DNA of 62,169 bases from IMG/VR virus record IMGVR_UViG_3300044540_000246, one strand, 5' to 3'. The notes below the pieces were generated by a model. That model was not told where the DNA came from. It did no database searches and worked only from the letters and a program-made list of their open reading frames with translations. Made by a program: the position numbers and the translations under genes. The stretch is from an uncultured virus (IMG/VR IMGVR_UViG_3300044540_000246). Its lineage: Duplodnaviria; Heunggongvirae; Uroviricota; Caudoviricetes. Position 1 is the stretch's first letter. The number at the start of each line of letters is the position of its first letter. Below are positions 5,612-58,947 of this stretch, piece by piece.

Positions 5612-5678
5612 CCGCACCTGCAGTTCACCGTTAGGCAACGCCGACCCGGAGCGTCCCACGGAAAGGGCGGTGGCGGCC

Positions 5679-6359
5679 ATGGCCGTGAAGAAGGTTCGCA
5701 AGGCTGACGGCTCCGCCGTCTTCGTTCGCACCGGGGAGGGGTCCGGCGGCGGCATCGTCGGCAACGCGCCCAGTCCGCGGACGCTGCGCGGCATCTCCGC
5801 GCCCGGACAGGCCCCGACCGCACTCCTTGACGGCTTGGACTGGCTCGCGGCGAACCCGGGCATCGTCGTGCCCTACCAGCCGTCCGTGGAAGCTGACCGT
5901 CTCGCATTCGCAATGGGAGCCGGGGGTGGAGTCGGAGCCTGGCTCGAACGCCGCAAGGCCCGGCGCGAGCTCGAGGAGAAGTTCGGCCCGATCGACTGGT
6001 CCGACCGGGACCTCGTTCCCGCGCCGACGTTCACCGCGCCCGCCCCGCAGGCGCCCGCGCAGCAGTCGATGACTGACACTGTCACGATGAGCGCGACCGC
6101 GCCTTCACGCTCCGCCGCGACCGACCCGGCCGCGCTTCGCGCGTACAGCGGCCAGTACGGGGTCCTGTGGTTGCGTGGCGCTGACGGCGACTTCTATCGG
6201 ATGGCAGACACTGCCCGAATGCTGCACTGCGAGGTCGGCGACCCCGGAGCCGCCGCGGACAGCGAATGGCGGCATAAGGAGCACGTCCTGGTCCAGTACG
6301 CGTCGTACGCGCTGCGGTACCAGCTCGATGACGTGTTGTTCACCCCGAACTCCGCCTGA
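5679..6359 (+). CDS. Hypothetical protein with divergent basic/Gly-rich N-terminal leader
   Basis: Starts MAVKKVRKADGSAVFVRTGEGSGGGIVGNAPSP; GGAAAGGG RBS; CGTTAGG at 5629. Confidence 0.65.
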   Translation: MAVKKVRKADGSAVFVRTGEGSGGGIVGNAPSPRTLRGISAPGQAPTALLDGLDWLAANPGIVVPYQPSVEADRLAFAMGAGGGVGAWLERRKARRELEEKFGPIDWSDRDLVPAPTFTAPAPQAPAQQSMTDTVTMSATAPSRSAATDPAALRAYSGQYGVLWLRGADGDFYRMADTARMLHCEVGDPGAAADSEWRHKEHVLVQYASYALRYQLDDVLFTPNSA

Positions 6360-6446
6360 CGCTGTAACGCTTCGACTGAGCATTCCGATGCGGTATAGTA
6401 GGGCTGTCCGGCTTTCGCGATCCCCCGGGCGAGAACGGACCAACCC

Positions 6447-7061
6447 ATGGCGCGCTTCTTCTCCGCTGACCACCACTTTGGACACGCCCGCATCATCGAG
6501 CTGTGCGGCAGGCCGTTCCGCTCCGTCGCGGACATGAACGAGATCATTCTCGCGAACGCATGGGAGATGGTCGGCCCCGACGATGACTTCTACCTCCTCG
6601 GCGACCTCGCGATGGGGTCCCTTGACGATTCACTCTCCTTCGCGTCCCGGCTCCCGGGACGGAAGATCCTCATCCTCGGCAACCACGACCGGCCTTTCAG
6701 TGAGCGAACCGAGCCGCGACGCGAAGCCGCTCGCCGCCGTTACGAAGACGCCGGCCTGACCATCGCTGACAGTCTCGTCGTTCGTGACACGATCGGGGGC
6801 CGCGACGTGCTCCTTTCGCACTTCCCATACGTCGGCGACTCCCACTCCGCCGTCGACCGGTGGGCCGAGGTCCGGGCCCGCGACGAGGGGCTGCCGATTG
6901 TGCACGGCCACGTCCACACGAGTTGGCACATCGACGGCCGTCAATACAACGTCGGTGTCGACGTCAACGACTTCCGGCCCGTTCCGGAGCAGGTCCTCGC
7001 CGACTGGGCCGCTTCCCTTCTTCCCGTGTCGTCCCAACACAAGACCGCCCGTGACCGATAG
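6447..7061 (+). CDS. Calcineurin-like metallophosphoesterase
   Basis: Motifs ADHHFGH, LGD, GNHD, SHFP, HGHVH, NVGVD. Confidence 0.92.
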   Translation: MARFFSADHHFGHARIIELCGRPFRSVADMNEIILANAWEMVGPDDDFYLLGDLAMGSLDDSLSFASRLPGRKILILGNHDRPFSERTEPRREAARRRYEDAGLTIADSLVVRDTIGGRDVLLSHFPYVGDSHSAVDRWAEVRARDEGLPIVHGHVHTSWHIDGRQYNVGVDVNDFRPVPEQVLADWAASLLPVSSQHKTARDR

Positions 7062-7122
7062 CGCCAGCGCGCGGCACAGACCCCGAACCGCCAACTCGCC
7101 AAATGAAGGAACCGACCGACTA

Positions 7123-8085
7123 ATGGGTGCGACACCATTCGCTCTATGCGTTTGTGTCACTTGCGGCCCGCCGTGGCGTAGCCAGTCACCTGAACCCGAC
7201 CGCGCCACCGACTTCGCCGGCTGGCTCGGGTGGCACTCATGGATGGCCCTGTGCCCCCGATGCGGAAGCAAACGATGCGTCGGAGCGTCCAACCACGACC
7301 AGCTATGCGCGCCCGCATTTCCCGGACCGACACTCAGCGCCTCGACGTCGACGGACCCCGGCAGCCTGAAGAAGGACTCTGCGAGCGGCGGGAACCTCAA
7401 CGCACGCATCGCGGAGGCGCGCGGCGTGGCTCTCACCGTCCGAGTGAAGGTGGGCGTCGCAGAGTCCCGAGTTATCAACGAACTCGCGGACGCTCTCCAA
7501 GCAATGGCCGCGGAGATGCATTCGCGCGAGCTACACCACTTCGAAACCGAGAAGCTGCTGGCCGAAGCCGGCATCGATCCGGACTCGCCGGCTCCGTCAT
7601 CAACAAGCGCTCCACAAGCGTCACCGGCCGCGCGGGCGCAAGGTGCGGAGGAGCGCGGTGTCGCGGACCGTGCAGCGGTACTGGCTATCCTCGCCGACCC
7701 TCAATGGCAGCGCTCCAACGTCGTGTACGAATGGCCCGACGACGAGGCCGAAGCGTACCGAGCGCTCGGCTGGTCGGAAGGGGCCGCAGCCGCTCATGAG
7801 ATCCTGCTGAACAAACAGGCCGACGCCGTGATGAGCGTTCTACGGACCGCGAGCGACGTGAAGGCCGAGGTGTTTGCGGAGGAGGCTGAGCATGTGCAGC
7901 GCCTCATCGACGCTGAACAGTCCGTTGAGCCGCAAGGTTCTACCGCCCACGCCATGCAGGGCTATGTTCTCAATGAACTGGAAGCGCTACGTGACCGTTT
8001 GCGGAGGCGTGCCGCCGAGTACTTCGGCCCAGCATCGCTCGCGGCGGCCGAACCACCCACAACTCCCTCGTCTTCGGCGCCCTGA
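7123..8085 (+). CDS. Hypothetical protein with Cys-rich N-terminus
   Basis: ATG 7123 after GAAGGA; CxCxxC and CPRCGSKRC...NHDQLC motifs. Start is uncertain. Confidence 0.55.
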   Translation: MGATPFALCVCVTCGPPWRSQSPEPDRATDFAGWLGWHSWMALCPRCGSKRCVGASNHDQLCAPAFPGPTLSASTSTDPGSLKKDSASGGNLNARIAEARGVALTVRVKVGVAESRVINELADALQAMAAEMHSRELHHFETEKLLAEAGIDPDSPAPSSTSAPQASPAARAQGAEERGVADRAAVLAILADPQWQRSNVVYEWPDDEAEAYRALGWSEGAAAAHEILLNKQADAVMSVLRTASDVKAEVFAEEAEHVQRLIDAEQSVEPQGSTAHAMQGYVLNELEALRDRLRRRAAEYFGPASLAAAEPPTTPSSSAP

Positions 8086-8124
8086 CCCCTCGACGGGTTT
8101 GGTCGGGTCGGGTGGTGCGATGCG

Positions 8125-8131
8125 CGTTAGG
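8125..8131 (+). promoter_or_regulatory. CGTTAG(A/G) motif, representative copy; putative element-specific promoter
   Basis: Copies at 5629, 8125, 11874, 13126, 18790, 19336, 28431, 47187, 53957 and 58885, with variant AGTTAGG at 30488. All lie 15-80 nt upstream of + strand starts. Confidence 0.65.
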
Positions 8132-8168
8132 GTTCGACGGTCAGCAGCGGCCAGTGAAGGGATATCCG

Positions 8169-8261
8169 ATGCCCGCAACCCGTGACCCGAAAGGCGCCCG
8201 CCGCGGAGGAAAGAGCTCCGGCGGCCAGTTCACCGCGAACACGTCCGGAAAGGCCGGCATC
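8169..8261 (+). repeat. Leader A coding repeat, copy 1 (others 11918-12010 and 13937-14029)
   Basis: About 90-bp near-identical sequence at the 5' end of three unrelated ORFs. Copies 1 and 2 also share upstream CGCGTTAGGG...TCAGCAGC...GTGAAGG. Confidence 0.95.
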
Positions 8262-8723
8262 ACAGCACCAAGCGTGCCGCCGATACCGGGACCTGCGCGT
8301 CTTGCGGATGCGGGCCAGGGAAGCTACGGCATGACGCGCGAACAGTTTGAAGCGTTCCTCGCCGCCCCTCCCCCTGCTCTTGTCAGCATTTCGGTCGAGC
8401 AGCTGTCCGACCGCCGCGACCGCACCCTTCTCCTGGGGTACACCGTTAACCGTGACACCTTTCACGTATACCTCCAAGACGGACTCCTGTGCCGTCACGT
8501 CTACTCGTCCGTGTTCCCGGATCGGTCAATCGCGGGATACGAGAACGAGGCTGGGGCGGAGCTTGTCGTTCAAGAGTTGGTCCCGAACAAGCGCGTGTAC
8601 CCCCAGTACTGCGACCCGGAGTTTGTCGGGCTCCTCCGGCAGGCGGGCGTCACGGTGCCGTTCACTAACCACAGCGATCCGGGGCGGGAAGGGCCGTTCT
8701 TCGCGAAGACCATGGAGGGGTAG
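8169..8723 (+). CDS. Leader-A-tagged hypothetical protein
   Basis: ATG 8169 after GAAGGG; MPATRDPKGARRGGKSSGGQFTANTSGKAGI, a Pro-rich linker, then a globular domain. Confidence 0.8.
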   Translation: MPATRDPKGARRGGKSSGGQFTANTSGKAGITAPSVPPIPGPARLADAGQGSYGMTREQFEAFLAAPPPALVSISVEQLSDRRDRTLLLGYTVNRDTFHVYLQDGLLCRHVYSSVFPDRSIAGYENEAGAELVVQELVPNKRVYPQYCDPEFVGLLRQAGVTVPFTNHSDPGREGPFFAKTMEG

Positions 8724-8965
8724 AAGGGCCCGGACGGGACGGTGTCGTCCGCTACGCCTTAGTCTCCGCATCGATCGGGATGAGGAATCCGCGCGTCTCG
8801 TGAGCGTGCTCAGCTCCCGAAATCGCCAGTTCAGTAGGGATATCGAACAATTTCGCAACCGCCCTCCCAGCCCCACGATCGCAAATCGCCAGTTAACGCG
8901 CTACACCGGTCACCGATAACCGATGGCGTCGGCGCTTTGCCGGCCGGTTCGGAACGGGGCTTCCT

Positions 8966-9844
8966 ATGCGACGTCACCATCTACTGCCCGTCTTCGCGGT
9001 CACGGCCGTCATACTGACCGCCTGCGCGGCTCCCCTTGAGGCACAGCTCGCCTCCACAGGCCAGCCAATCTCGACAGTCGAAACTGACGCGTCAGTCGCC
9101 AGCGCCAACGAAGCAGGGCAGGGCCTGAGCGAGAGCAACATCCCCAACACGGCCGGCGAATCCACGGCCACCGGCCCGATCGCGGGCGACGGCGACTCTT
9201 CGATGCAAGGAGAAGTCAAGCCCAACGAGACAGCGACAAGCGGCGAACCCGCCCCGCCCGACTCAGCCACCGAAACCTCACACGAAGGAAGCGAGGTGCA
9301 GGGAGCGGAGACCCCGCCGCCGTCTGACCCCCTCGCCTCTGCGCCAACATCTTGCGCCCCTGCGCCGACAGATGCTTTCGGGGAAGCGCCTTCGGTGACG
9401 TCGGTCGGCGGAGTCGGCGGCACGACAACATCCGATCTGCAGAGCTTCGCTCGCACATACAACGACATCCGAGTTGCGAACTGCCTTCCGCCGATCCCTT
9501 ACCGGAACATCCGATACGACTCCTGCACGGAGACGCGTTTGTTCTGGATTGCCGAAGATCCGTCCACAGATTCGGCGAGCGCCTGGGGGCATATCGGATC
9601 CGTTCGCTCGGACGGACTGGCCAGCGTCGGCTGCGACGGCAACCTCGCTGGGGGCGCAGCTGACATTGGCGCTACCGTCGCCCAGAAATGGTGGGACTCG
9701 GCCCCGCATCGGGCATCCCTGTACAAGCCGACGTTCTTGGGCTCAACCAACGGCGTCTGTATCCTCTTTGCGATGACGCATGGCGGGGTGCCGAACGAAC
9801 CATACTCGTTCACGCGCGCAGCGGCGCGTTGGGTGAACTGCTGA
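8966..9844 (+). CDS. Lipoprotein with CAP/SCP-like C-terminal domain
   Basis: Lipobox ILTAC, low-complexity S/T/E/P linker, YNDIRVANCL and WWDSAPHRASL resembling the CAP signature. Confidence 0.7.
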   Translation: MRRHHLLPVFAVTAVILTACAAPLEAQLASTGQPISTVETDASVASANEAGQGLSESNIPNTAGESTATGPIAGDGDSSMQGEVKPNETATSGEPAPPDSATETSHEGSEVQGAETPPPSDPLASAPTSCAPAPTDAFGEAPSVTSVGGVGGTTTSDLQSFARTYNDIRVANCLPPIPYRNIRYDSCTETRLFWIAEDPSTDSASAWGHIGSVRSDGLASVGCDGNLAGGAADIGATVAQKWWDSAPHRASLYKPTFLGSTNGVCILFAMTHGGVPNEPYSFTRAAARWVNC

Positions 9845-9866
9845 CACGCGCTTCTGTCGCGGCCGG

Positions 9867-10241
9867 TCAGTCAACCGCGCAGTACGCGACTTTCCCGTTC
9901 TTCACTCGCGCGTAGATAGTGTGAGTCCCGAAGAGGTAACGGTCGCTGCTCGAATCGTGAGCAGCGCCGACGAGGGTGTCTTCGACGCGTTTACCGTCAC
10001 TGCGATAGACATGAAGCTCATACCCAGCCAGTGAAGCGATTGCCGCCACTTCCTCGACAGATCGGCCGATCAACGCCGCCGGTGGAATGTAATCGCCGTC
10101 GCGCTGTCGCGCAGCGATCGCTTCGAACCGCGAGCGTCGTTCACGACGGATGGCGCGAAGGTTGCGCAGCCACACCGGGTTCGTCAGGCGGTAAGTATTC
10201 GGCAGACGAAGGTTCCCACACTCGGGGCATCGCAGCAGCAT
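9867..10241 (-). CDS. Hypothetical protein with CPEC motif
   Basis: The C-terminal part of track ORF 9867..10952 looks protein-like, while the upstream part overlaps the M50 gene. Start is uncertain. Confidence 0.4.
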   Translation of the reverse strand: MLLRCPECGNLRLPNTYRLTNPVWLRNLRAIRRERRSRFEAIAARQRDGDYIPPAALIGRSVEEVAAIASLAGYELHVYRSDGKRVEDTLVGAAHDSSSDRYLFGTHTIYARVKNGKVAYCAVD

Positions 10242-10604
10242 CCAGTTCGCCCACCGACCCCACCGTTCGTACGCGCGAGTCAGCGACCCGTTCGCACAGC
10301 CATAATCGCGGCGCGGGAACCGCAAGGCGGGACCCGACCAGGCCGGACAGCGGCGCGGCTTGTCATAGTCGGCGCGAAACACCAGCGGGAGACCGGCGGA
10401 GACCCACGCTCGGACCGGCCACGGCCACGAGGGGCGGCCGTCCACGGTCGACTGTGACGCGGGCTTGCTACGAAGCAGAGCATCCATCCTGGTCGGCACG
10501 AAGCGCGGCCCCTTCTTTTGAACGTGGCCGCTCCAGCGTATAGGGCAGTGCCGACACCGGCTCCGCCTGGCGGAGCGCGCACCGACGGAGCCGATGTCGG
10601 CGCC

Positions 10605-11327
10605 ATGGACTGGTTCGGGCAGCTGTGGGCTTGGCTCACTGTCGCGCCTCAGGTGCCTGAATGGTGGCTTGTCGTTCCCGCTGCGGTCGTCGGCGTTGCC
10701 GGCGTTGCCGTCCCCGCAACGTGGCGCGCGACGCGTCTGCTCGAGGTCTACGTGCACGAGACGGGGCATGCGCTCGTCGGAATGGTGACCGGACGAAGGG
10801 TTGACGCGATCTACCTCGACAGCAACGGCGGAGGCATGACCACGACAGCCGGCCGCGAGCACGGCCTGGGCCGCATTCTCACCACATTCGCCGGATACCC
10901 GGCACCTGCCCTTGCTGGGCTCGGCATCTTCGTGGCCCTCTCGGCAGGGCATGCACGCTGGGCTATCGCGGGCGCCGCAGTCGCCTCAGGCCTCCTACTT
11001 CTCGCCCACCGGTCGTGGCGCGGCCTTCTTGTCACCGGCATCATCCTCGCGTCGGCGACAGCGCTCGCCGCCGCACCCGTTACCGTCGCGGCAGTTGCTC
11101 TCGCCTGTGTCGGCGGGTATTTGCTGGCCGCATCTCCTCGCGGAGTCATCGACCTTCATCGGGCTCGACGTCAAGCGCGCGCGACCGGGATGCCCGCGCA
11201 CTCCGACGCCGACACGCTGGCCGGACTCACTCTCGTACCTGCGCTGATATGGGAGCTGGTCTTCCTGGCTGTGTGCGCAGTCTGCTTCTGGTGGTCGGTT
11301 TCAATGTATCTGTCCGCGATCGCATAA
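10605..11327 (+). CDS. M50B-like intramembrane zinc metallopeptidase
   Basis: HETGH in hydrophobic context, AGYPAP, SDADTLA, several TM segments; probably leaderless (CCGATG-N8-ATG). Confidence 0.85.
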   Translation: MDWFGQLWAWLTVAPQVPEWWLVVPAAVVGVAGVAVPATWRATRLLEVYVHETGHALVGMVTGRRVDAIYLDSNGGGMTTTAGREHGLGRILTTFAGYPAPALAGLGIFVALSAGHARWAIAGAAVASGLLLLAHRSWRGLLVTGIILASATALAAAPVTVAAVALACVGGYLLAASPRGVIDLHRARRQARATGMPAHSDADTLAGLTLVPALIWELVFLAVCAVCFWWSVSMYLSAIA

Positions 11328-11479
11328 CCCCAGCCGTGTAACCCCAGCCGCCGGAGTACCTGGCTCGCACACAGTCGCTGCCGCTTCCGCGCACGAGCAC
11401 TCCGACCGGTCCCCGGCGCTGTCAGCCGATATCCGTCAGCGTCCCGAGACCGTGGCCGTCCGCCCCGAAGGAGCACTAG

Positions 11480-11827: not shown

Positions 11828-11917
11828 ACGCCCGCCTGCGGGTATCGACGCGCCGTCCGACCACCCCGTACCGCGTTAGGGCCCCACAGTCAGCAGCCAC
11901 GTGAAGGAGACCTCCCG

Positions 11918-12481
11918 ATGCCCGTAACCCGTGACCCGAAAGGCGCCCGCCGCGGAGGAAAGAGCTCCGGCGGCCAGTTCACCGCGAACACGTCCGGGAA
12001 GGCCGGCATCGCCGCCCCCGCCGCAGCCCCGGCGAGGAAGCCCGCCCACGGCGGACGGCTCCTGCGTCACACCGCAGAAACCCGCGCCGAGCTGACCGCG
12101 ATGCTGCACAAGAAGTTCGACCAGGGCTACTTCCAAGGCTCCTGGGGCCGGATCGGTCGCACCCAGCACCCCGTCTTCGACGCACTCACCCCCGCCAGCC
12201 TCTGTGGCCGCTACACCACCGGCACGACCAGCGCCGAACCGCACGTGCGGGAGAAGTTCTGCCGCGAGTGCCGCAGCCTGTTCCGCGACGCCGTCACCAG
12301 CTGGCTCAAAGGCAAGGAAGGGCAGTTCCTTTCCGACCTCGAAGACGGCGACCCGGAAGCCGCCCGCAACAGCCTCGACTCCATCCAGCGATTCCGCAGC
12401 CTTCTCGCCGCCAGCCCGAAGACATGGGACCTGTCGCTCCGAGGCGTCGACACTGACGAGCTCCCGCCTCGCCGGCGCTAA
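11918..12481 (+). CDS. Leader-A-tagged hypothetical protein
   Basis: MPVTRDPKGARRGGKSSGGQFTANTSGKAGI followed by a domain with SLCG...FCREC; GAAGGAG RBS. Confidence 0.8.
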   Translation: MPVTRDPKGARRGGKSSGGQFTANTSGKAGIAAPAAAPARKPAHGGRLLRHTAETRAELTAMLHKKFDQGYFQGSWGRIGRTQHPVFDALTPASLCGRYTTGTTSAEPHVREKFCRECRSLFRDAVTSWLKGKEGQFLSDLEDGDPEAARNSLDSIQRFRSLLAASPKTWDLSLRGVDTDELPPRRR

Positions 12482-12533
12482 CTCGACCGGAGGTAAGACC
12501 TCCGCCACCCCTAAGAAAGCCGATGGCATCACT

Positions 12534-12797: not shown

Positions 12798-12823
12798 ACC
12801 GCGGACCGAAAGGCCGACAAACC

Positions 12824-12895
12824 ATGAACTCACACTTACAGGACCCGAAGACCGGAAAGATGGCCGGCTCGACCGCCGGCCGCGACAACGTCCCC
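12824..12895 (+). repeat. Leader B coding repeat, copy 1 (others 13141-13212, about 18820-18894 and about 19397-19470)
   Basis: LQDPKTGKMAGSTAGRDNVP is identical in copies 1 and 2; the others read IQDPKTGRLAGSIGCGRD and LQDPTTGKMAGSAAG. Confidence 0.92.
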
Positions 12896-13120
12896 GTTGC
12901 ACCCACGCCCGCGCCGGCGCCGTTTCCCTCCGGCACTCGAGTCCGGCACGCCGACACACCAGCACCTTCCGGGTGCCGGTGGTGCGGTCACGAGCAGCGC
13001 GGCCACGGCCACTCGTTCGTACGCAGCGTCGGCGGCCACCGATGGGAGCCACCGACCATGGCGCAGCGCCTTGCCCGCATGCGCGCACGGCGCGCAGCCC
13101 GACTATCCGCGCAGCGCTGA
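12824..13120 (+). CDS. Leader-B-tagged small Cys/His protein
   Basis: MNSHLQDPKTGKMAGSTAGRDNVP followed by PSGCRWCG...H...H.WEPP; GAAAGG RBS. Confidence 0.75.
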   Translation: MNSHLQDPKTGKMAGSTAGRDNVPVAPTPAPAPFPSGTRVRHADTPAPSGCRWCGHEQRGHGHSFVRSVGGHRWEPPTMAQRLARMRARRAARLSAQR

Positions 13121-13140
13121 CGTCGCGTTAGAGCCCTGCC

Positions 13141-13914
13141 ATGACCTCCTACCTGCAGGACCCGAAGACCGGGAAGATGGCCGGTTCGACCGCAGGCCGC
13201 GACAACGTCCCGGCTACGCCCGGCCAGGCTCCCGCCACGTTCGCCAACAACGCGCCGGCGGCGCACATCCCCGAGCTCGCGGACCTGTACGACGCATTCG
13301 TCGCCGAGCACAACCGGCCGCCAGTCATCGGACTTGACCTGGACGGCACCACCGCCGACATGGTCGCCAACCTTCGCGGTCGAGTAGCCGAAGCTCGCGG
13401 CATTGCCGCCGACCGGGCCACGTTGCCCGACCCGGACGACTACTTGATGTGGCAGGGCAGCGCCCCCTGGTTCGCCTCCAAGGAAGACTTCCTCGGCCAT
13501 TTCCAAGCAGCCGAACGGGATGGCATGTACCGAGAGCTCGGAACCTACGAGGGCGCAGTCGAGGTCCTCCGCACCCTCGCTGAGCATGGATTCGTTATCC
13601 ACGCGGTCACCGCTCGCAGCGCCACCTACAACAACGACACGCAGGCATGGCTCGACGCCCAGGGCATCCCGGCAATCCAAATCCGTAACCCCGGATTCGA
13701 CAAGCACACACTCGGCGACGTCGACGTGTTCATTGACGACGCTCCTCACGTCATTGACGGGCTCGCAAACGCCGGCCGGTCGGTCGTCGTGTTCGAGCAG
13801 CCCTACAACGCCGACAACCTGCCGGCAGCAGACCATGTCAAGACCATGACCCGCTGGGAGGTTCAGCAAGTCGCCAACGCGCTACGCGCCCTCCTGAACA
13901 CCGGTCACCAGTAA
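13141..13914 (+). CDS. Leader-B-tagged HAD-family 5'(3')-deoxyribonucleotidase-like protein
   Basis: Leader B, then IGLDLDGT (HAD motif I), VTAR, FIDDAP and QPYN. Confidence 0.85.
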   Translation: MTSYLQDPKTGKMAGSTAGRDNVPATPGQAPATFANNAPAAHIPELADLYDAFVAEHNRPPVIGLDLDGTTADMVANLRGRVAEARGIAADRATLPDPDDYLMWQGSAPWFASKEDFLGHFQAAERDGMYRELGTYEGAVEVLRTLAEHGFVIHAVTARSATYNNDTQAWLDAQGIPAIQIRNPGFDKHTLGDVDVFIDDAPHVIDGLANAGRSVVVFEQPYNADNLPAADHVKTMTRWEVQQVANALRALLNTGHQ

Positions 13915-13936
13915 GCGCCCAAGAAAGGGAAACCCC

Positions 13937-14419
13937 ATGGCCACGACACGTGACCCGAAAGGCGCCCGCCGTGGCGGAAAGAGCTCCGGCGGCCAGTTCA
14001 CCGCGAACACGTCCGGCAAGACCGGCGTCGCCGCGCCAGGCGCAGCACCTACCGACTTCCTCGGAACCGTCCGCGAGGGGCTCGCAGCCGCGCACAAGCA
14101 GGTCGAAGTGCATGAGGCCCAGCTGTACCGCCACGGCCATGCCGGCGTGACCGCCCTGGCCCGGCAGATGTTCCCGACCGCCGCGACTATCGAACTCGTC
14201 GACGCAAGCGATTCCGGAGGCTCACCGTACTTCCTCGCTCACCGCATCCTAGACGCGGCCGGCGACGAGCTTTGGAGCGTCGAAGCCAGCTACGGCAGGA
14301 GCGACGCCATCCAGGATCTGCTCGGCGAGTTCACCCCCTACTTCGACCGTCACATCCCCGAAAGCGAACGCCGCCACACGTATCTCGGCAACGACGTCTG
14401 GGAAGTCACTCTCGGCTGA
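13937..14419 (+). CDS. Leader-A-tagged hypothetical protein
   Basis: MATTRDPKGARRGGKSSGGQFTANTSGKTGV; GAAAGGG RBS; starts 22 nt after the previous gene. Confidence 0.8.
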   Translation: MATTRDPKGARRGGKSSGGQFTANTSGKTGVAAPGAAPTDFLGTVREGLAAAHKQVEVHEAQLYRHGHAGVTALARQMFPTAATIELVDASDSGGSPYFLAHRILDAAGDELWSVEASYGRSDAIQDLLGEFTPYFDRHIPESERRHTYLGNDVWEVTLG

Positions 14420-14461
14420 AAGCCGGCCATGCGGAAAGCGAACTCTGCGACCCCTTGCGCG

Positions 14462-15010: not shown

Positions 15011-15049
15011 GCTTCGATGATACTGGCGCGGACCGTCATCGCCTCCCCG

Positions 15050-15071
15050 TGTCGTACAGGGGGCCTATACT
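15050..15071 (+). promoter_or_regulatory. TGTCGTACAGGGGGCCTATACT promoter box (CGTACAG-N6-TATACT)
   Basis: An identical 22-mer occurs on the - strand at 53913-53934, with variants at 56392-56413(-) and 43790-43811(-). The TATACT -10 lies 6 nt before ATG 15078. Confidence 0.75.
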
Positions 15072-15077
15072 CAGATC

Positions 15078-15857: not shown

Positions 15858-15910
15858 CCGGCGCCCCGATACCTCGACCGACCCGGAATGCGCGACCAGA
15901 CAGGACCCTC

Positions 15911-16890: not shown

Positions 16891-16892
16891 CG

Positions 16893-18758: not shown

Positions 18759-18819
18759 CTACTCCCGACAGATACCCGCCCCGATACCGCGTTAGGACCC
18801 CAGCACGAAAGGACGCGAC

Positions 18820-19215
18820 ATGGCTGACCACATCCAAGACCCGAAGACCGGCCGGCTCGCCGGCAGCATCGGCTGCGGCCGCGACACCGCGCCGGCCTCC
18901 CCGCGGACCGAGCTCGCCGCCCTGCACGCAGCCCGCGACCGAGCGTTCACGGAACAGACTGACGCGAACTGGGAAGCAACCCGCGACCAGCTCGTCGCCC
19001 GTTACGGCCTCGGTAACCACGACATCGCCCGCGTCTCCAGCCACCGGCAGGCCCACCCCGGAGTGTGGACCGGGACCGTGACCGTCCGCGGCCGACGGCT
19101 GCGCGCCCGCACCATTCTTGGAACGACGGAACGCGCCCTCTACCGGCACCCACTCGTCGGCCGTCCGCTCACCCGCGAGCAGCTCGCCGACCTCGTCGGA
19201 CCGACCTCGACATAA
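18820..19215 (+). CDS. Leader-B-tagged hypothetical protein
   Basis: MADHIQDPKTGRLAGSIGCGRD; GAAAGGA RBS; CGTTAGG at 18790. Confidence 0.75.
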   Translation: MADHIQDPKTGRLAGSIGCGRDTAPASPRTELAALHAARDRAFTEQTDANWEATRDQLVARYGLGNHDIARVSSHRQAHPGVWTGTVTVRGRRLRARTILGTTERALYRHPLVGRPLTREQLADLVGPTST

Positions 19216-19396
19216 GCGCCATAGCCCCCGAGGGTCTTCCCGGCTGGCTGATCACCGGCGCGCCGCGGTGACAACGGCTCCGGCAAGCCCGGCGACCAGC
19301 TGACCGCCCTCGCCGAGCTCGCCAAGCTGCGGACCCGTTAGAGCTCCCCTGACCGCCGCGCCCCAGCTGCGCGGCGCTGAGCGACGGGAAGGCGAC

Positions 19397-19969
19397 ATGG
19401 CCAAGCACGACTACCTGCAGGACCCCACGACGGGAAAGATGGCCGGCTCCGCCGCCGGTGCACGCCGTACCCCCTCCGCCCCCGCCGCTGCGCCCGTCGC
19501 GTTCCAGCCAGAGCCCGGCGCGAGCCCCGCTCGGGTCGCGTACCTCGCCGCGATGGAGGCCCGCGAGATCGCCCGCCATCACCGGAACGCCATGTCGGAC
19601 CTTGTGACCCACCCATCCGGCCGCGGCGCCGACTACATCATCTTCTCCGCCGAAGGTCTCCCCGTCCGCACCGCCACCCTCGACGGCGAGTTCACCGCCC
19701 GGCACGGCGACCCCGCACTATTCGCCGCACTCGACGAACACGCCCCGTACATCACCGCCCACGAGGGCATGTTCGACGACGCCCGCATGTACGGCGGGCG
19801 GATCTCTCTCGATGCCGCCGAACGCGCCCTCCCGGTCCTCAAGCGATGCGGCATCGACGGATGCATCTACCGAACCGGCCCCATCGGCAGCTACCCCCGC
19901 CATAGCCCCACCACCGGCTGCCACTACGGCGGCGTGCTGCGGCACTGCATGTGTTCCCGCTGCTTCTGA
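19397..19969 (+). CDS. Leader-B-tagged hypothetical protein with C-terminal Cys/His cluster
   Basis: MAKHDYLQDPTTGKMAGS...; ends CGIDGC...H...C...HCMCSRCF; CGTTAGA at 19336. Confidence 0.75.
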   Translation: MAKHDYLQDPTTGKMAGSAAGARRTPSAPAAAPVAFQPEPGASPARVAYLAAMEAREIARHHRNAMSDLVTHPSGRGADYIIFSAEGLPVRTATLDGEFTARHGDPALFAALDEHAPYITAHEGMFDDARMYGGRISLDAAERALPVLKRCGIDGCIYRTGPIGSYPRHSPTTGCHYGGVLRHCMCSRCF

Positions 19970-28423: not shown

Positions 28424-28508
28424 CGGCCGGCGTTAGAGCTCAACTATTGGCCGCCGCCCGGAACTCAGATCGACTGCCGGGCGACGCGACCTCGAAGGGG
28501 GAAGCTTC

Positions 28509-28988
28509 ATGCTCAACCGAAACCGTCAACTCCGCCGGGACCGTCAAGGGCGTTTCGCCCGCTCGCATGCTGTCGCGACCGCGACCCCGAACACCCCCTT
28601 CCCGGCACCCACCCTCCTCCCGGCGGCGTTCGACTCACCTCGCGCAGCGTTCCAGGCCGAGCTCGAAGCTCACCTGGCTCGGGCGACCGCCAAAGCGATC
28701 CGCGAGCTGACCGCATTCGAGACCTACGAGGGGCCTCATCTCATCGTGACCGTACGGACACCTTCCAGCACCGCTCGCGTTTCCGAGATGGAGGAAGGGA
28801 TCTGGGAGGCGGTCACGTCACCGCATACCGTCGGCGCCGCACCGCAGCTCGGCGGACCTTTCCGCACCAAAGCCGAAGCTCGATCCTGGGCCGAGAGGAC
28901 CGCGCTCGACGTCCACGTCGCTCGCACTCATGAGCGAGTCATCGCCGCAGCCCTTGACGGTCTACGCGCCGGTTCCGCTCACGCCTGA
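28509..28988 (+). CDS. Hypothetical protein with RDxxGRF-type leader
   Basis: MLNRNRQLRRDRQGRFARSH then a Pro-rich linker; GAAGGGG RBS; CGTTAGA at 28431. Confidence 0.7.
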   Translation: MLNRNRQLRRDRQGRFARSHAVATATPNTPFPAPTLLPAAFDSPRAAFQAELEAHLARATAKAIRELTAFETYEGPHLIVTVRTPSSTARVSEMEEGIWEAVTSPHTVGAAPQLGGPFRTKAEARSWAERTALDVHVARTHERVIAAALDGLRAGSAHA

Positions 28989-30398: not shown

Positions 30399-30531
30399 GA
30401 CGCTCCCTCTCTCGCGGACAGTGCCTACTGTCGCAGGCACCTCCGACATTCGTACAGCGCCCCTGTCCGGACACCTCGCCGGCGTGCAGTTAGGTATCCA
30501 TTCCACGCTGAACCGCACTCCAGGAGGACCC

Positions 30532-32043
30532 ATGCCTGCCGCACGCGAGAATCGCGGCGCCAAGCGCTCCGGCGTCAGCATCGGAGGGCAGTTCGCGCCA
30601 GACCGGTCAGGCATCCGAGGCGTTCGGGCCCGTCCCGAAGCGCCCACTACCGCTTCCCCCTATGAGGTCGGCGAGGCTTCCGAGCTGGCCGACATTGACA
30701 TCTGCACCGTCTGCGAAGGTCCGATCCTCCCCGCAGACGAGGGTGCCTGTCAGGCCTGCGAGCAAGCCGCCTACGAAGCGGCCCTCAGTAGCTCGCTACC
30801 GGACGACGTACTCGAACGTGCGCTCGCTGAAGACGCAACTGCCCAGCCGCCCGTCCGGACCGTTTCCGAGTTCGAGCTGCCACCCGAGCTCGACACGACC
30901 GTCTCCTCGCTCGCGCGGGCCGTCGTCGACGGCGACCCTGCCGCCGCAGCGGACCTGCGCGCGCAACTCACCGAACAGATTGCTCGCCTCCCAGTCCAGG
31001 CCATCCCGGCGCCCTTCTCCAGCGACCCCGTAGATCCGGCCGAGCTCCCCCATACGGCAGGCATCTACATCATCACCGGGCCCGACGCCTCCTATGTCGG
31101 CCTAGCTAAGGACATCCACCAACGCTTCTACAACCGCGACTACGGCCATCTGACAGAGAACAACCACTGCCGGTCCCGCTTCATCCTCGACGGGGATGAC
31201 TACGAAATTCGAGTCATCCCCGTCGACGCGAGCGAAGACGGCCGTGAGGCTCAGCAGTACGCGCTCGCCGAAGCAGAAATTCGCGCCTACGCCCAACTGC
31301 ACGCCGCCGGCCACTATCCGAACAACGCCTTGGCGACCCTCGGCCGAGTCGGTGACGGGAAGGTCATTCCGATCGTCGCCTGTGACCTGGCGACCGGCGA
31401 GTACACCTTCTACGAGTCGACGATGGCCGCCACCCGCGACACCGGCTCAACCTCGATCGCTGCCGCGCTGCACGGATACCAGCGCATCGCCGCCGGCCGG
31501 GTCGTGCGGTGGGCGACGTTCGGCGAGCAGGAGCTCCTTCTCGACAAGACCGACCGGGCGGGGAAACTCACCGGCGAGATCGTCACGAAGGCTCTGTCCA
31601 TTCAGCCGCGCTCGGTCGACTGGGGCGAAACTCGCGAGGGTGGGCGCGGAGCTGACTTCTCGTGGTCCGGTGGCGCCCTCGCCGCCGACGACATCACCAC
31701 GCTACGGCCCTATGTCCGCGGCGTGGGCTCATATAACAAGAACCGCCCTACCAGCGGCTACTACGGCGTGCGCAGCCTTGGCGACGAAAGCAAGTGGGAA
31801 GTTCGCATCAAGACCGGGCCCGGCCCGCGCGACGCGATCACTAAGACGTTCGCTGACGCGCACGAGGCGGCCGTCTACCGGGAGTCCTATATCACCGACA
31901 ATGGCCTGCAGGCATATAACAACGGGGTGGGGGCCTCGAACGCAGACGCGCTCAACTTCCACTTCGGAGCAAGGCAGTTCACCGGATGGGACTCTTCGCC
32001 CGGCCGTCGCGCTGCCGCCGACGGGGCCGCTGCCGCCGCCTAA
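30532..32043 (+). CDS. Leader-tagged GIY-YIG endonuclease with Zn ribbon and C-terminal AP2-like domain
   Basis: AGGAGG RBS; leader RENRGAKRSGVSIGGQFAPDRSG; CTVC...CQAC; GIYIITG...YVGLA...RF...E...N; TSGYYGV...WEVRI...TF...EAA.YR. Confidence 0.75.
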   Translation: MPAARENRGAKRSGVSIGGQFAPDRSGIRGVRARPEAPTTASPYEVGEASELADIDICTVCEGPILPADEGACQACEQAAYEAALSSSLPDDVLERALAEDATAQPPVRTVSEFELPPELDTTVSSLARAVVDGDPAAAADLRAQLTEQIARLPVQAIPAPFSSDPVDPAELPHTAGIYIITGPDASYVGLAKDIHQRFYNRDYGHLTENNHCRSRFILDGDDYEIRVIPVDASEDGREAQQYALAEAEIRAYAQLHAAGHYPNNALATLGRVGDGKVIPIVACDLATGEYTFYESTMAATRDTGSTSIAAALHGYQRIAAGRVVRWATFGEQELLLDKTDRAGKLTGEIVTKALSIQPRSVDWGETREGGRGADFSWSGGALAADDITTLRPYVRGVGSYNKNRPTSGYYGVRSLGDESKWEVRIKTGPGPRDAITKTFADAHEAAVYRESYITDNGLQAYNNGVGASNADALNFHFGARQFTGWDSSPGRRAAADGAAAAA

Positions 32044-43618: not shown

Positions 43619-43819
43619 GGGGCGTGGCCTCTCTCTTTGGGGTCCGGTGGTGCGAGTGTGTCGTCATCTGACGGGTGCCTCAGGCGATCAGTGCGACATG
43701 GGGGATATCGGCGTCTAGTGATCGTTTCGAGGTATGCCTATGCGCTAACGGAACGTTCCCGGATGTCGGTAGCGGGCCGCTTCGATGTTAGGATAGTCCC
43801 ACTGTACGAAAGGGCTTGC

Positions 43820-47161: not shown

Positions 47162-47241
47162 CGAAACTCACTGCGCGGCCGCGCAGCGTTAGGCCGCCTG
47201 CCGCATGGCCGTCCGCGGCAAGGGGGGCCGGCAGGGCCGGA

Positions 47242-53888: not shown

Positions 53889-54001
53889 GAATGCCCCCTT
53901 TCGGACACTCACAGTATAGGCCCCCTGTACGACATTGCGGCAGTCCTCTGCGCGTTCGTTAGGGCTTCAGGAGCCATAACTGCCCGAGGAAGGTGCCCCT
54001 G

Positions 54002-55441
54002 ATGACTGCACGCGAGGAGATCATCGACGGCGGCCGCAAGATCGTCCTGCGCCGCGACAACGGCGAGCTTGCCGGCTCCCGCTCGATCGCCGGCAAGTCC
54101 GGCATCGCCGCACCGGTAGCGTCAGCCCCTGTCGCGTTCCCCGGAGCTCTCGGCATCGTCGACTCGACCCAGCTCGACGAAGCGGAGGTGTTCCTCAACC
54201 TCATTCACCACAGCGACATGCCTGCCGTCGACGAGGACTTCGATGCAGTGGAGCATCGAGCAGCATGGCTCGAGAAGCTCCCCGAACCGCTCCAGGTCGG
54301 GTACCTCACGATGCGGACCCTGCCAACCAGCCTGGGCGAGGATCAGGCGCAGTACGTCTTCACGGCGCTACGCAACAGCGTCAAGCGCTGGGATCCGGCG
54401 CCCGTGGAGCCGACGGACCAGGAGTGGGAGACATACCTCGCGGAGACGGCAGCCAAGCTCGCCGACCCGGAGAACATGATGACTCCCGAGGCTCGTGCGG
54501 ATGCGCTCGCACGTCTCGGCGCCCTGTCGATCGGTCCGAAGCCGGACGGTCCGACGTTCGCCGTCATGGTCAACGCACCCAAGCGGGCCTGGCAGGCCAA
54601 GTTCGCCCTCGATCAGCAGGCCCTACAGATCGCATCCTGGGTCGACGCAGACGAGTACGAAGTGAAGCGGATGGTCACCCGGTTCCGCAGCGAGTACTAC
54701 GCGCTCGCCGACGCCGGCACGCCGCCTGAGATCGATCCGAAGTATCACTCCGCGTGGAAGCGAACCGACTGGTACTCCCCGAAGGACGCCGCGACCGCCT
54801 ACTCGCATTGGAAGGCGGAGAACCCCGAGCTCTATCTCAACCCGGAGGAACCCCGCCGATTCGTCGCCCTTGACCTCGAAACGACCGGCCTGTCGACTCG
54901 CGACTCGGACATTATCGAGGTCGGCCTGGTCGAGTACGACGCGAAGGGTCGCGAGATCGGCAGTTGGAACCAGCTTGTTCGCCCGCCGGCGCAGCCGGAC
55001 GGCTCGATCAGCGTCGGGGACGAGAAGGTCCAGTCGGTGCACAAGATCTCCGTCGAGGACGTCATCAACCAGCCGACGTTCGACCAGATCCTTCCCGAGT
55101 TGCATAAGCGCCTCGTGGGGGCGACCGTCATTGGCCATAACCTCGCGTTCGACACCCGTCACCTGCGCACCAACTTCCGCTCCTACGCCCCCGACGGGGA
55201 TCGTGAGCTGTCGAAGGCTCCTTGGAAGGGTGAGGCGGACACGCTGTTCCACGCCGCACGACACATGGACGGCTTGGAGAACAACAAGCTGCAGACCGTG
55301 TCCCAGTCTCTCGGGATCTCGTACACCAACGGGCACCGGGCCGAGCATGACGCCCGCGCGGCCGGCGAGGTGTTCTTCGCCCTGCGTAAGCAGATTAAGC
55401 GCCGCCAGGCCGCTGCGATCGCGGCGGCAGGTCAACGATAA
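54002..55441 (+). CDS. Leader-tagged DEDDh 3'-5' exonuclease (DnaQ-like) with a large N-terminal domain
   Basis: ExoI ALDLETTG, ExoII GHNLAFD, ExoIII HRAEHDA; N-terminus RRDNGELAGSRSIAGKSGIAAP; CGTTAGG at 53957. Confidence 0.88.
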   Translation: MTAREEIIDGGRKIVLRRDNGELAGSRSIAGKSGIAAPVASAPVAFPGALGIVDSTQLDEAEVFLNLIHHSDMPAVDEDFDAVEHRAAWLEKLPEPLQVGYLTMRTLPTSLGEDQAQYVFTALRNSVKRWDPAPVEPTDQEWETYLAETAAKLADPENMMTPEARADALARLGALSIGPKPDGPTFAVMVNAPKRAWQAKFALDQQALQIASWVDADEYEVKRMVTRFRSEYYALADAGTPPEIDPKYHSAWKRTDWYSPKDAATAYSHWKAENPELYLNPEEPRRFVALDLETTGLSTRDSDIIEVGLVEYDAKGREIGSWNQLVRPPAQPDGSISVGDEKVQSVHKISVEDVINQPTFDQILPELHKRLVGATVIGHNLAFDTRHLRTNFRSYAPDGDRELSKAPWKGEADTLFHAARHMDGLENNKLQTVSQSLGISYTNGHRAEHDARAAGEVFFALRKQIKRRQAAAIAAAGQR

Positions 55442-56557: not shown

Positions 56558-57340
56558 GTGAAGACGACGACAGCAGTCGCCGCCGCGCGCGACACGCCAG
56601 GTCCAGCCCGACGACCAACCGGCCCAGCCGACGGCACCGCCGTCGCAACCGGCTTCGGCGGTGCGCCGCTCACGCCCCTGCACCAGCGCTCAGCCGACGC
56701 CATTATCGCCGACTACGGGTTCCTCGTTGACGCTGTCCTGCGCCGCCTACCCCCGCCCGCGCTGCACGGCCGCGTCGCCGACATCGACGATCTCCGACAA
56801 GAGGGGCTCATCGCCCTACTCGATGCGGCCCGCACCTACAACCCCGCTGCCGGCGCAGCGTTCCCGACCTACGCCCGCGTCTGCGTCCTCAACGCCATCC
56901 GCATGGTCCTGCGCAAACTCGACGTAGTCCCCTCACAGGTAAGGCGCGACCTGCGCACCGTCCGCGCAGCAGAGGACCGCCTTGCGCAGACGGGCGACAG
57001 CGTCGACGCTTTGCCGGCAACGACCGGTTTGACCGTCAGCCAGATTCGGCACGCACGCCATTGGCAGCACCTCGCCACCACCGTCGAGCTCGACGAAAGC
57101 TCCCCCGCCTCTCATCCTTCACCGGAACAGGCGGTCCTGGCGGCGGAGGAAGCACGGGAGCTGCGCGCCGCCATTGCCGCACTACCGGAACGGCATCGAC
57201 GCGTTCTACTCAGCCGCCTGGTCCATGAGACCCCCGTCCGAACACTCGCCGCCGCCGAAGGTCTATCCCCGGCACGCATCAGCCAGTTGACCACATCAGC
57301 CATCCAGGCGCTGGAACAGATCGTCCGACCGACCCCATAA
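56558..57340 (+). CDS. RNA polymerase sigma factor, FliA/WhiG (sigma28) family
   Basis: DDLRQEGLIALLDAARTYNP...FPTYARVCVLNAI...LRKLD.VP; region 4 LPERHRRV...LSPARISQL; GAGGAG RBS before GTG 56558. Confidence 0.88.
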   Translation: MKTTTAVAAARDTPGPARRPTGPADGTAVATGFGGAPLTPLHQRSADAIIADYGFLVDAVLRRLPPPALHGRVADIDDLRQEGLIALLDAARTYNPAAGAAFPTYARVCVLNAIRMVLRKLDVVPSQVRRDLRTVRAAEDRLAQTGDSVDALPATTGLTVSQIRHARHWQHLATTVELDESSPASHPSPEQAVLAAEEARELRAAIAALPERHRRVLLSRLVHETPVRTLAAAEGLSPARISQLTTSAIQALEQIVRPTP

Positions 57341-57388
57341 AGCGCTGACCGTCGGCCGTGGAACATAACGCCGGCCGCAAGGGGGGTA

Positions 57389-57964
57389 TCAGCGAGACAA
57401 CAAGCGGCGGAAGAAGCTCCGGCGCGGCACCAGCTCGTTGCCCGCGGCCCCTTGGGCGTCGGCGGCATCCTCAGCCGAACCGTCAGCCCACACGTCCTCC
57501 TGCTGGGCCGCTTCCCACGCGAGCAGCAACGCCTCACGCTCCGCCGGCGTCTGGGTCACCATCAGCCAGAAGACCGACGCGATAACCACGACGATCGCGC
57601 CCATGAACGCGTTCCCCAGGTCATGGAACGCGCCGACGATCAGCATTGCCACCATCCATAAACCGGCCGCAGTGAAGGCGACCCGTCGACGCAGAAGAAG
57701 CGGCCAGCGTTCCCGAACGTTGAGCCGCGCATGCCAGGCGTCGTTCAGGGCGGACCACCAGACCACGTAGCCGGCCAGGAACCACGAAAGGCCCCCGAGC
57801 GACCCGGCGATCACCATTACGAGCTCGACCGCATGCAGCGCCAGGCCGACAGCGACGAGCGCGACACCTGCCGCGGCGAGGATTCCGGCGAGCGCCTTCG
57901 CGCTGCGCCCGGCGAGGATCTGCCGGTCCGCCCAGCCTCGAAAGCTGTCAAGGAGCTGGTTCAT
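57389..57964 (-). CDS. Four-TM membrane protein
   Basis: Four hydrophobic segments; GGAAAGGG RBS. Confidence 0.75.
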   Translation of the reverse strand: MNQLLDSFRGWADRQILAGRSAKALAGILAAAGVALVAVGLALHAVELVMVIAGSLGGLSWFLAGYVVWWSALNDAWHARLNVRERWPLLLRRRVAFTAAGLWMVAMLIVGAFHDLGNAFMGAIVVVIASVFWLMVTQTPAEREALLLAWEAAQQEDVWADGSAEDAADAQGAAGNELVPRRSFFRRLLSR

Positions 57965-58233
57965 TGGGGTCCCTTTCCGGGTTCGGACGTGCACGAGCAC
58001 CATCGGCGCACCGACTGGCTGCCGAGGCGGACAGCGAGCGAGAGCCCCCGCCGGTCGGCGCATCTGCGGCCATTTGGCGCCGCCATAGCCGCCCGAGGGG
58101 CAGACTCGAGTGCCTCCTCGTCGCGACAGGGACCGCCCGCCGAGCCAACGGCGACGCTGGCCGATACAGAAAGGCAAGACACGCGAGCCGTAGGGATACT
58201 GAGCACGCGCCCACCCACGCAGGAGAACAAGAC

Positions 58234-58782
58234 ATGACTATCCAGCTGCTCAAGAACAACTCAGAAGCCGACGGTCCGGTCATCGCACCGATTAAGGCCG
58301 ACGGCAGCGGCTTCCCCCTCGGCATGTACTACAACGGCTACGCCGACGTCGCCTTCGCCGACACCTACGCAGAGCTTCTCGACATCCTCATGCCCGGCTA
58401 TGCCGCGGACGACGAAGCCGCCCAGATCGCCCGCCGCATCACGCTCGCCGCCAACGTCGCCGCACAAACCCAGGCCAGCGTCATGTACGACGCCGACCGC
58501 TCCGACTTCACCGACGCCGAGTGGGAAGCCCTCACCACCCCGCGCACGATGAAACAGCCGACAGTTCTGTGGTGGACCCACGAGGTCCCCCTCGTCGTGT
58601 ACGAGACGGCATACGAGCCGTACACCGACGTCCCCCGTCCCGCATCCGCCCAGGCAGACGGCGCCGCCGACGCACCGAACCTGTGGTGGATTCGGAACGT
58701 CGAAGAAGAGGACTTTCTCATCAGCCTGCACGAAGTCGGCTACATCCGACTCATGCAGAACCTCACCATCACCGAAGACTGA
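58234..58782 (+). CDS. Hypothetical protein (acidic)
   Basis: AGGAG RBS; strongly GC3-biased codons. Confidence 0.75.
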   Translation: MTIQLLKNNSEADGPVIAPIKADGSGFPLGMYYNGYADVAFADTYAELLDILMPGYAADDEAAQIARRITLAANVAAQTQASVMYDADRSDFTDAEWEALTTPRTMKQPTVLWWTHEVPLVVYETAYEPYTDVPRPASAQADGAADAPNLWWIRNVEEEDFLISLHEVGYIRLMQNLTITED

Positions 58783-58803
58783 TCCCGGCGCCACCACCGG
58801 CCG

Positions 58804-58850
58804 CGAAGGCCCCGCACGCGCTCGAGCGCCGGCGGGGCCTTCGTGCTTTC
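58804..58850 (+). terminator. Hairpin terminator
   Basis: CGAAGGCCCCGC...GCGGGGCCTTCG followed by TGCTTTC. Confidence 0.7.
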
Positions 58851-58947
58851 TCGCGGCGGGCGCCTACGCCACCAGCCGCCGGCTCGTTAGGGACCCCGTT
58901 GGACGGAACGACCGTCCCGCGCAGCCCTAAACGTCGCCGAGGTCCCC

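Follow-up and report, generated by a model that had tools for sequence, protein, structure and literature searches.

The window and its leader genes

The stretch of DNA considered here (hereafter the window) comprises 62,169 nucleotides from the IMG/VR record IMGVR_UViG_3300044540_000246, filed as an uncultured virus of the Caudoviricetes; it has a GC content of 67% and is half of a 124,169-bp contig from freshwater runs. It encodes DnaE, GyrB, GyrA with an intein, DnaG, NurA, an amidoligase, a glutamine amidotransferase, surface proteins and a FliA/WhiG-like sigma factor, and a six-frame search found in it 11 genes whose products begin with short, glycine-containing N-terminal leaders of the GGQF, QDP..GS or GRF type. 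Our subject is the word GTTAGR (R, a purine), which stands upstream of most of these leader genes and is probably a promoter element. The leader genes are as follows.

5679..6359, + strand: leader gene; its C-terminal domain is joined to two other leader types elsewhere
8169..8723, + strand: leader gene, GGQF type; no family match
11918..12481, + strand: leader gene, GGQF type; no family match
12824..13120, + strand: leader gene, QDP type, without a word of its own; PHROG 20506, of unknown function
13141..13914, + strand: leader gene, QDP type; NT5C-like nucleotidase domain
13937..14419, + strand: leader gene, GGQF type, without a word of its own; 22 nt after 13914
18820..19215, + strand: leader gene, QDP type
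19397..19969, + strand: leader gene, QDP type
28509..28988, + strand: leader gene, GRF type
30532..32043, + strand: leader gene, GGQF type; 503 aa, no family match, a GIY-YIG-like stretch by eye
54002..55441, + strand: leader gene; DEDD 3'-5' exonuclease domain

The copies of the word on the + strand are given next, with the amidoligase gene that the last of them precedes; G001 and L011 are relatives of the element described below.

5629..5635, + strand: CGTTAGG, its G 49 nt upstream of leader gene 5679
8125..8131, + strand: G 43 nt upstream of 8169; also fits the host box TANNNT
11874..11880, + strand: G 43 nt upstream of 11918
13126..13132, + strand: G at -14 of the ATG at 13141, no ribosome-binding site (RBS), A at -11
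18790..18796, + strand: G 29 nt upstream of 18820; the word CCGATA nearby at 18781
19336..19342, + strand: G 60 nt upstream of 19397
28431..28437, + strand: G 77 nt upstream of 28509
30488..30494, + strand: AGTTAGG, its G 43 nt upstream of 30532
43786..43792, + strand: TGTTAGG, upstream of non-leader gene 43820; T at -7 present
47187..47193, + strand: orphan copy, lying where the ends of dnaG and nurA converge
53957..53963, + strand: G 44 nt upstream of 54002; kept before the 47% identical G001 ortholog
58885..58891, + strand: G 62 nt upstream of the amidoligase gene; kept before the G001 and L011 amidoligases
58948..61536, + strand: amidoligase with an N-terminal "MSC" domain, a non-leader member of the GTTAGR class

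An earlier sequence-only reading of this DNA had described the motif as CGTTAGR. That 7-mer has exactly 10 copies in the window, all on the + strand and all intergenic, and these lie, together with AGTTAGG at 30488, where that reading placed them; TGTTAGG at 43786 had been missed. The last two copies widen the set to GTTAGR, which occurs 12 times on the + strand and once, within coding sequence, on the - strand, and it is this core rather than CGTTAGR that is invariant as far as the aligned copies tell. Coding copies of CGTTAG had been noticed to be followed by C; in the window C or T follows in four coding copies and in one intergenic copy.

To judge from their sequences the leaders are modular and exchangeable between bodies; for instance, the body of 13937 carries a QDP leader in P0081. 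The bodies of leader proteins include nucleotidase, exonuclease, ligase, Fic, ParB-like and LPD29-like domains. A tblastn search with the leaders only, against plasmids and phages, gave no match, and a leader profile run against 1.8 billion representatives gave 10 matches, namely six from the window, three other leader proteins and one repeat artefact. A literature search found no account of the word, the leaders or the element family, most subscription papers and all supplements lying outside its coverage.

Association of the word with leader genes

The number of copies in itself is not significant, and the association of the word with leader genes is. Counted over 54 hand-curated genes with an upstream reach of 100 nt, GTTAGR precedes 9 of the 11 leader genes as against 2 of the 43 others (Fisher 5e-7), at distances of 14-77 nt from the start codon. 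The two leader genes that have no word of their own (12824 and 13937) each lie behind a motif-bearing gene on the same strand, as had been noted from the sequence, with a small open reading frame (ORF) between 12824 and its motif-bearing neighbour. In permutations that re-chose the best of all 5- and 6-mers for every label shuffle, the observed association was reached in 0 of 2000 over all genes and in 18 of 2000 among the 31 genes of the + strand. When near-duplicate leaders were collapsed to six types the word stood before all six, and the corresponding counts were 0 and 21 of 2000; with the 13126 copy trimmed off, the same permutations gave 3, 47 and 11 in 1000.

A strain contig covering 11853-12048 differs from the window at 11883 and 11888 and nowhere inside the word, among the 9 of 10 differences listed; this is too little to be counted. 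Sequencing contigs aligned to 5400-20000 carried no information on starts.

The word in relatives

The closest long relative, G001, consists of two contigs, C1 and C2 (42% GC, 141.6 kb read), which we infer to belong to one element, and about 14 window proteins recur in it at 21-74% identity. These contigs are filed in a Polynucleobacter genome bin, a placement that is probably wrong since they bear genes of actinobacterial type (WhiB-like, NucS and DivIVA); the motifs of the element are present on them as well. GTTAGR lies in the sense orientation upstream of 28 of the 140 G001 genes, versus 8 in antisense, and its copies track gene orientation on both strands. By a leader regular expression fixed beforehand, which has false positives, the word precedes 6 of 10 leader genes and 22 of 130 others (p 0.005); for leader or MSC genes taken together the figures are 9 of 16 and 19 of 124 (p 0.0007). 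Carriers include the ortholog of the 54002 exonuclease, one amidoligase ortholog, four of the seven MSC-type genes and gyrB, and GTTAGG lies 37 nt before the FtsK gene, with the word again before the small gene that follows it.

Two further relatives came from a metagenome scan, in which they were the only true relatives among 32 loci. In L010 (51% GC) GTTAGR precedes an MSC gene and a homolog of the 58234 gene, and not the amidoligase behind it; in L011 (54% GC) CGTTAGG precedes an amidoligase that bears a GGQF leader. The C preceding GTTAG is not kept among the relatives. These relatives at 42, 51 and 54% GC, in which GTTAGR stands before the leader exonuclease ortholog, amidoligases and other leader genes, lend the word stronger support than the window count does. 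Going by these carriers, the word is not exclusive to leader genes.

The MSC domain (58948-59500 in the window, with seven paralogs in G001) occurs on amidoligases, on a gamma-glutamyl cyclotransferase and on other proteins. It is perhaps another targeting module, since a GGQF leader takes its place in L011; the ESM Atlas offered nothing usable for it.

Other searches were less productive. Of 30 loci from a genome scan, two loci of one contig and one Streptomyces locus were genuine. IMG/VR searches revealed no relatives, their yield being one distant nucleotidase and some distant amidoligases, and otherwise nothing. Matches to the 58234 protein lie on 11 actinobacterial plasmids, which range from 149-968 kb in size. 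A Streptomyces plasmid (353 kb) and a Glaciihabitans plasmid (149 kb) have only single modules in common with the window and no leader set, and GTTAGR precedes 2 of 331 and 1 of 143 of their called genes, respectively. In L002 (Streptomyces plasmid NZ_CP107773.1) an amidoligase-58234-amidotransferase module lies beside conjugation genes; the plasmid is unrelated in other respects and has no leaders and no GTTAGR.

The Arthrobacter-group megaplasmid pACHL01 (NC_011879.1) has in common with the present element family the 58234 protein, dnaE, a number of small genes, GGQF leaders, genes for pili and for FtsK, and a promoter-like word used across the element. Its word differs, being GCCGYACAC, and stands before leader and non-leader genes without distinction. 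GGQF leaders number 52 coding sites versus 2 in the control; there are about 40 leader genes of this type, and 7 of 40 leader proteins have any Pfam match. GCCGYACAC has 116 copies in the first 400 kb versus 5 of the reversed word, and 122 copies over pACHL01 (L042-L061, L104-L105) and L132, often 9 nt before an ATG; among called genes it precedes 25 of 39 leader genes and 52 of 482 others. In a second Arthrobacter plasmid, a stretch of 16.5 kb contains 9 copies. GTTAGR precedes just 1 of 44 pACHL01 leader genes. In both clades, so far as sequence can tell, leader genes are thus tied to an element-specific word which is not theirs alone. Relaxase typing of pACHL01 typed none.

Promoter geometry

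Two leader genes without an RBS, 13141 in the window and 47986 on C2 of G001, have the G of the word at -14 and therefore an A at -11; at 13126 eight bases separate the 7-mer from the ATG. A second word, CCGATA, lies at exactly -14 before 10 G001 genes, and GCCGYACAC at -18 before 26 pACHL01 genes, and in both the A is again at -11, while a TATACT box in the window begins at -12. An A at -11 is the base flipped out by sigma-70-family factors, and G-14, T-12 and A-11 agree with the extended -10 of primary sigmas. The word would accordingly be read as a -10 box in the register G-14, T-13, T-12, A-11, G-10, R-9, and that GTTAGR is a promoter seems to us probable.

It is not a host consensus promoter, as T-7 and a -35 are both missing. 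T stands at -7 in 2 of the 12 window copies and in 0 of 16 gene-proximal G001 copies (among the 22 of 23 rows listed). A scan of 5400-20200 for a TTGACA-like -35 at 16-18 nt found one site, which lies at none of the six copies there, and upstream of the 12 aligned copies there are no conserved -35 columns; over 36 nt no column rises above 10 of 12 beyond the adjacent C. Nor does GTTAGR match other familiar promoter types. The sigma-28/WhiG -10 GCCGATAA is matched by the separate CCGATA class and not by GTTAGR, and extracytoplasmic function (ECF) factors of the SigH/SigR type have the consensus GGAA-N17-18-GTT, for which no GGAA box at that spacing was found in the 12 aligned copies.

The main alternative to a new sigma factor has host sigma-A (or sigma-B) reading GTTAGR as an extended -10, helped by an activator encoded on the element; the leader genes would then have the word in common through joint regulation. 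The G-14/T-12/A-11 pattern is that of an extended -10, T-7 is present at 8125 and 43786 and in pACHL01 copies at -14, and a relative encodes a WhiB-like/helix-turn-helix protein. Against this, 10 of the 12 window copies and all 16 G001 copies lack T-7, and the 36-nt alignment has no common upstream operator; we consider this explanation unlikely. Host sigma-A alone should read the word poorly because there is no conserved -35 and no T-7. One copy may nonetheless belong to the host: 43786 has T-7, and a TATAAT box goes with the orthologous gene of the relative, so that an extended -10 for host sigma-A is more likely there than membership of the GTTAGR class. Conservation of this copy was rejected.

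Alternatively, the word might act in RNA, as a protein-binding site in the 5' leader, or in DNA, as a polar signal for FtsK/TraB-type translocation. The 14-77 nt spread, the presence of 12 of the 13 window copies on one strand and the FtsK genes of the element family would suit such a signal. We find it improbable, given that there is no structure signal (RNA and DNA folding gave z of -1.8 to +2.1 around the word in 12 of 12 windows of 120 nt), that the G001 copies track gene direction on both strands, and that the RBS-less genes share the -11 register with two other promoter-like words. In windows of that length the folding result also speaks against a Frpo-type single-strand promoter or structured RNA leader. 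DtxR/IdeR-type operators contain GTTAGG; a palindromic operator of this or another type was rejected, as the aligned flanks hold no common inverted half-site.

Other promoter-like classes

Two further classes of promoter-like sequence are present in the window.

4099..4104, - strand: CCGATA, second class, sigma-28-like, before dnaE
8913, 11426, 15866, 18781, 20038, 36822 and 58161, + strand: further intergenic CCGATA sites
43711, 48396, 51313 and 61945, - strand: further intergenic CCGATA sites
15050..15071, + strand: host sigma-A-type promoter, TATACT with upstream TGTCGT, third class
53934, - strand: same TATACT box, third class
56413, - strand: variant of that box, third class

The third class belongs to a set of TG(T/C)CG(T/G)-N10-TANNNT boxes at 15050 (+), 53934 (-), 56413 (-) and 10556 (-), with another at 82509 on C1 of G001 before the RpoD-like sigma gene; the window has four at spacer 10, versus 0 and 1 at spacers 9 and 11. 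This arrangement resembles the DNA-damage RecA-NDp/PafBC promoter consensus. The RecA-NDp promoter is described, without its sequence in the available text, in PMC8223512 and PMC6789036.

Twelve intergenic copies of CCGATA occur in the window (against a mean of 1.9 and a maximum of 8 in 2000 shuffles), and the word lies upstream of dnaE, gyrA and nurA as well as of the genes for the subtilase, the giant DUF11 protein and 58234. It is the dominant class in G001, where intergenic DNA holds 57 of its 82 copies and where it lies within 80 nt of 56 of the 140 genes, among them two of the long pilin genes and the Flp-like pilin gene. Sigma-28/WhiG promoters have a -35 TAAA and a -10 GCCGATAA, and predicted WhiG targets lie at type IV pilus genes of Rubrobacter (PMC8325347, in the portion available). 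The likeness lies in CCGATA, which fits this -10 and stands before genes for pilins, surface proteins and replication; the difference is that GTTAGR does not match, and a TAAA -35 was neither seen nor searched for.

Three of the genes behind CCGATA are of interest in themselves. The gyrA gene (36876-40655) contains an intein with Hint and LAGLIDADG domains, and the GyrA of the relative is about 440 aa shorter. A 2768-aa surface protein of DUF11 repeats with a C-terminal membrane anchor (20117-28423) and a subtilase with fibronectin repeats (40721-43618) both have CCGATA upstream.

Sigma factors of the element family

56558..57340, + strand: FliA/WhiG-like sigma factor, start uncertain, candidate reader of the word

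If the word is a promoter, we lean slightly towards a sigma factor encoded by the element as its reader. An RpoD-like factor would suit because of the G-14/T-12/A-11 pattern, and G001 encodes one, behind a host-type promoter; it is a possible, if doubtful, candidate. The sigma factor of the window is a less likely one. Its Sigma70_r2 and r4 domains exceed the cut-off, it is nearest to FliA/WhiG (below curated cut-offs) and its gene is preceded by a host-type TAGAGT box, and it and its L010 counterpart each lack two of the three -10-reading residues of FliA, which we take to be D81, R84 and R91.

G001 also has two divergent sigma-28-like paralogs, whose fold matches are sigma factors. These proteins (L099:8085-9509 and L103:4415-6469) belong to an uncharacterised family of about 60 members with two extra N-terminal domains, and a search for it gave 62 proteins, on contigs of up to 364 kb. 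The family has an invariant D..R...GR where FliA has its -10-reading residues, and from this kept pattern it would be the natural reader of CCGATA.

Nature of the element

There was no match to virion families by Pfam in 53 window ORFs or by PHROGs in 18, and no capsid, portal, terminase or tail protein among the 91 G001 proteins or 51 larger pACHL01 proteins scanned. G001 encodes pilins, prepilin peptidases, FtsK and HerA. From the genes read, the element family looks like one of actinobacterial megaplasmids; a phage whose structural genes lie in the other half of the contig or beyond it seems less likely.

Weighing the interpretation

Taking these results together, we consider it reasonably likely that GTTAGR is the -10 box of a promoter class of this element family, read by an element sigma factor and driving tagged proteins together with amidoligase/MSC genes. 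Several observations weigh against this. The whole-window count of CGTTAGR is within chance, ten being reached in 8 of 100 shuffles (mean 6.14). Intergenic copies of GTTAGR do exceed shuffles (12 versus a mean of 2.5 and a maximum of 10 in 2000), which speaks for the reading, but the intergenic enrichment that had been proposed as a check is a weak one. Every sense frame of the word requires a stop or rare codon, and the word is also intergenic in 29 of 40 copies in pACHL01 and in 8 of 17 and 7 of 10 in others of three high-GC plasmids, for which reasons intergenic location is a poor test. The final purine is likewise partly codon bias, as AGA plus AGG (2.4 per 1000 codons) and TTA (0.3) are rare compared with AGC (13.7). 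The copies at 8125 and 11874 have a common downstream flank, and those at 11874 and 13126 a common upstream flank, so not all are independent. The 19336 and 47187 copies may be incidental: the former ends a startless coding-like stretch, the TAG of the word being the stop of that frame, and the latter has no credible + strand gene downstream, and the relative lacks a copy at the corresponding position. In G001 the intergenic enrichment is modest (23 of 172, p 0.009), hand-picked leader genes divide into five of eight with a copy and three without, and the copies before WhiB-like and SbcC-like genes overlap an AGGAGG ribosome site, for which we discounted these genes as members of the class. 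Two of three pACHL01 copies at -13/-14 have T-7, as an ordinary host promoter would. The register is fixed by two leaderless cases alone, a third (L010) being one base off. Neither the window nor the matches on its 124-kb contig include a member of the divergent sigma-28-like family, no ortholog of the FliA-like factor was found in G001, and no sigma factor is common to every piece seen, all of the pieces being partial.

Some of these points would also suit a word that merely hitchhikes in a duplicated upstream-plus-leader cassette and is otherwise a codon-avoided intergenic word with no function of its own. Beyond the common flanks and the intergenic bias seen everywhere, three GGQF-type genes have an identical 43-nt spacing and leaders are swapped between the same bodies. 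We think this very improbable, because the association persists with six collapsed leader types, most pairs of copies have unrelated flanks while the six bases stay invariant, and the word is kept across 42-67% GC.

Beside the 19336 copy we note that 19200-19341, after gene 18820, holds two short startless coding-like frames, perhaps a decayed C-terminus.

A staged gene programme and its significance

Returning to the reading of GTTAGR as an element-family promoter class, we propose that a sigma-70-family factor of the element would turn on the tagged proteins, the amidoligase/MSC family and a few other genes as one stage, separate from the CCGATA class (replication, surface, pilin) and the host sigma-A class. 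We infer that this stage is late or concerned with transfer. Judged by sequence, the genes fall into classes under two unrelated putative promoter words, and one of these classes coincides with the genes for a swappable peptide tag. The regulon suggested from the sequence stands in that the word is -10-like, strand-oriented and kept in three relatives with sigma factors on the element, CGTTAGR not being its core. It was drawn too narrowly as dedicated to leader genes, given the amidoligase/MSC, gyrB and FtsK carriers, the 22 of 130 non-leader G001 genes and the element-wide word of pACHL01. Its further proposal, that tagged cargo is co-expressed with the machinery that loads it, is conjectural: one FtsK gene in one relative supports it, while several pilin and surface genes carry CCGATA.

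That the tag routes proteins to a transfer step linked to FtsK or the pilus is a tentative suggestion. More speculative still is that these elements form a widespread and so far undescribed family of actinobacterial megaplasmids of 230-360 kb which run a phage-like, staged programme with their own sigma factors, starting from sigma-A (possibly upon DNA damage), passing through CCGATA replication and pilus genes, and ending with GTTAGR expression of FtsK and dozens of tagged proteins for relaxase-free delivery to a recipient.

Regulons under a sigma factor of the element itself have been described in phages and, in rare cases, in plasmids, and the word hints at a staged, phage-like gene programme on an element in which no virus parts were found. 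The promoter words offer a sequence handle with which to list the regulon and find the transfer machine in any complete member, and as pACHL01 resides in a harmless host that is in culture, the promoter and tag ideas could be tested there. Should the tag indeed route proteins into recipient cells, it would represent a new signal for protein delivery among Actinobacteria.

Comparison with known systems

T4-type late promoters reportedly consist of a -10-only box read by the phage sigma gp55. The GTTAGR class is like these in its short -10-only word, absence of a -35, coherent gene class and location on a large element that has its own genes for replication and for sigma factors; it is unlike them in its sequence, and in having no virion match among the proteins scanned and no IMG/VR relatives.

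Polyvalent proteins such as ArdC and TraC1 are cargo of phages and conjugative elements that is linked to delivery during invasion (PMC5512222, as far as its available text goes). The leader proteins recall them in their nuclease, nucleotidase, ligase, Fic, ParB-like and LPD29-like domains. Unlike them, the proteins here are small and single-domain and carry a short swappable tag, and no such tag or promoter is mentioned in the available text of PMC5512222.

In the available part of PMC6751061, SigN (ZpdN) of the Bacillus subtilis plasmid pBS32 is a plasmid sigma factor that directs a plasmid regulon. The window differs from this system, which is of another phylum, in having at least two element-specific words, several sigma factors and targets with an N-terminal tag, and the regulon here is drawn from sequence alone. 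The likeness lies in a large plasmid with its own sigma factor, whose gene stands behind a host sigma-A promoter, as the FliA-like gene of the window and the RpoD-like gene of G001 appear to do.

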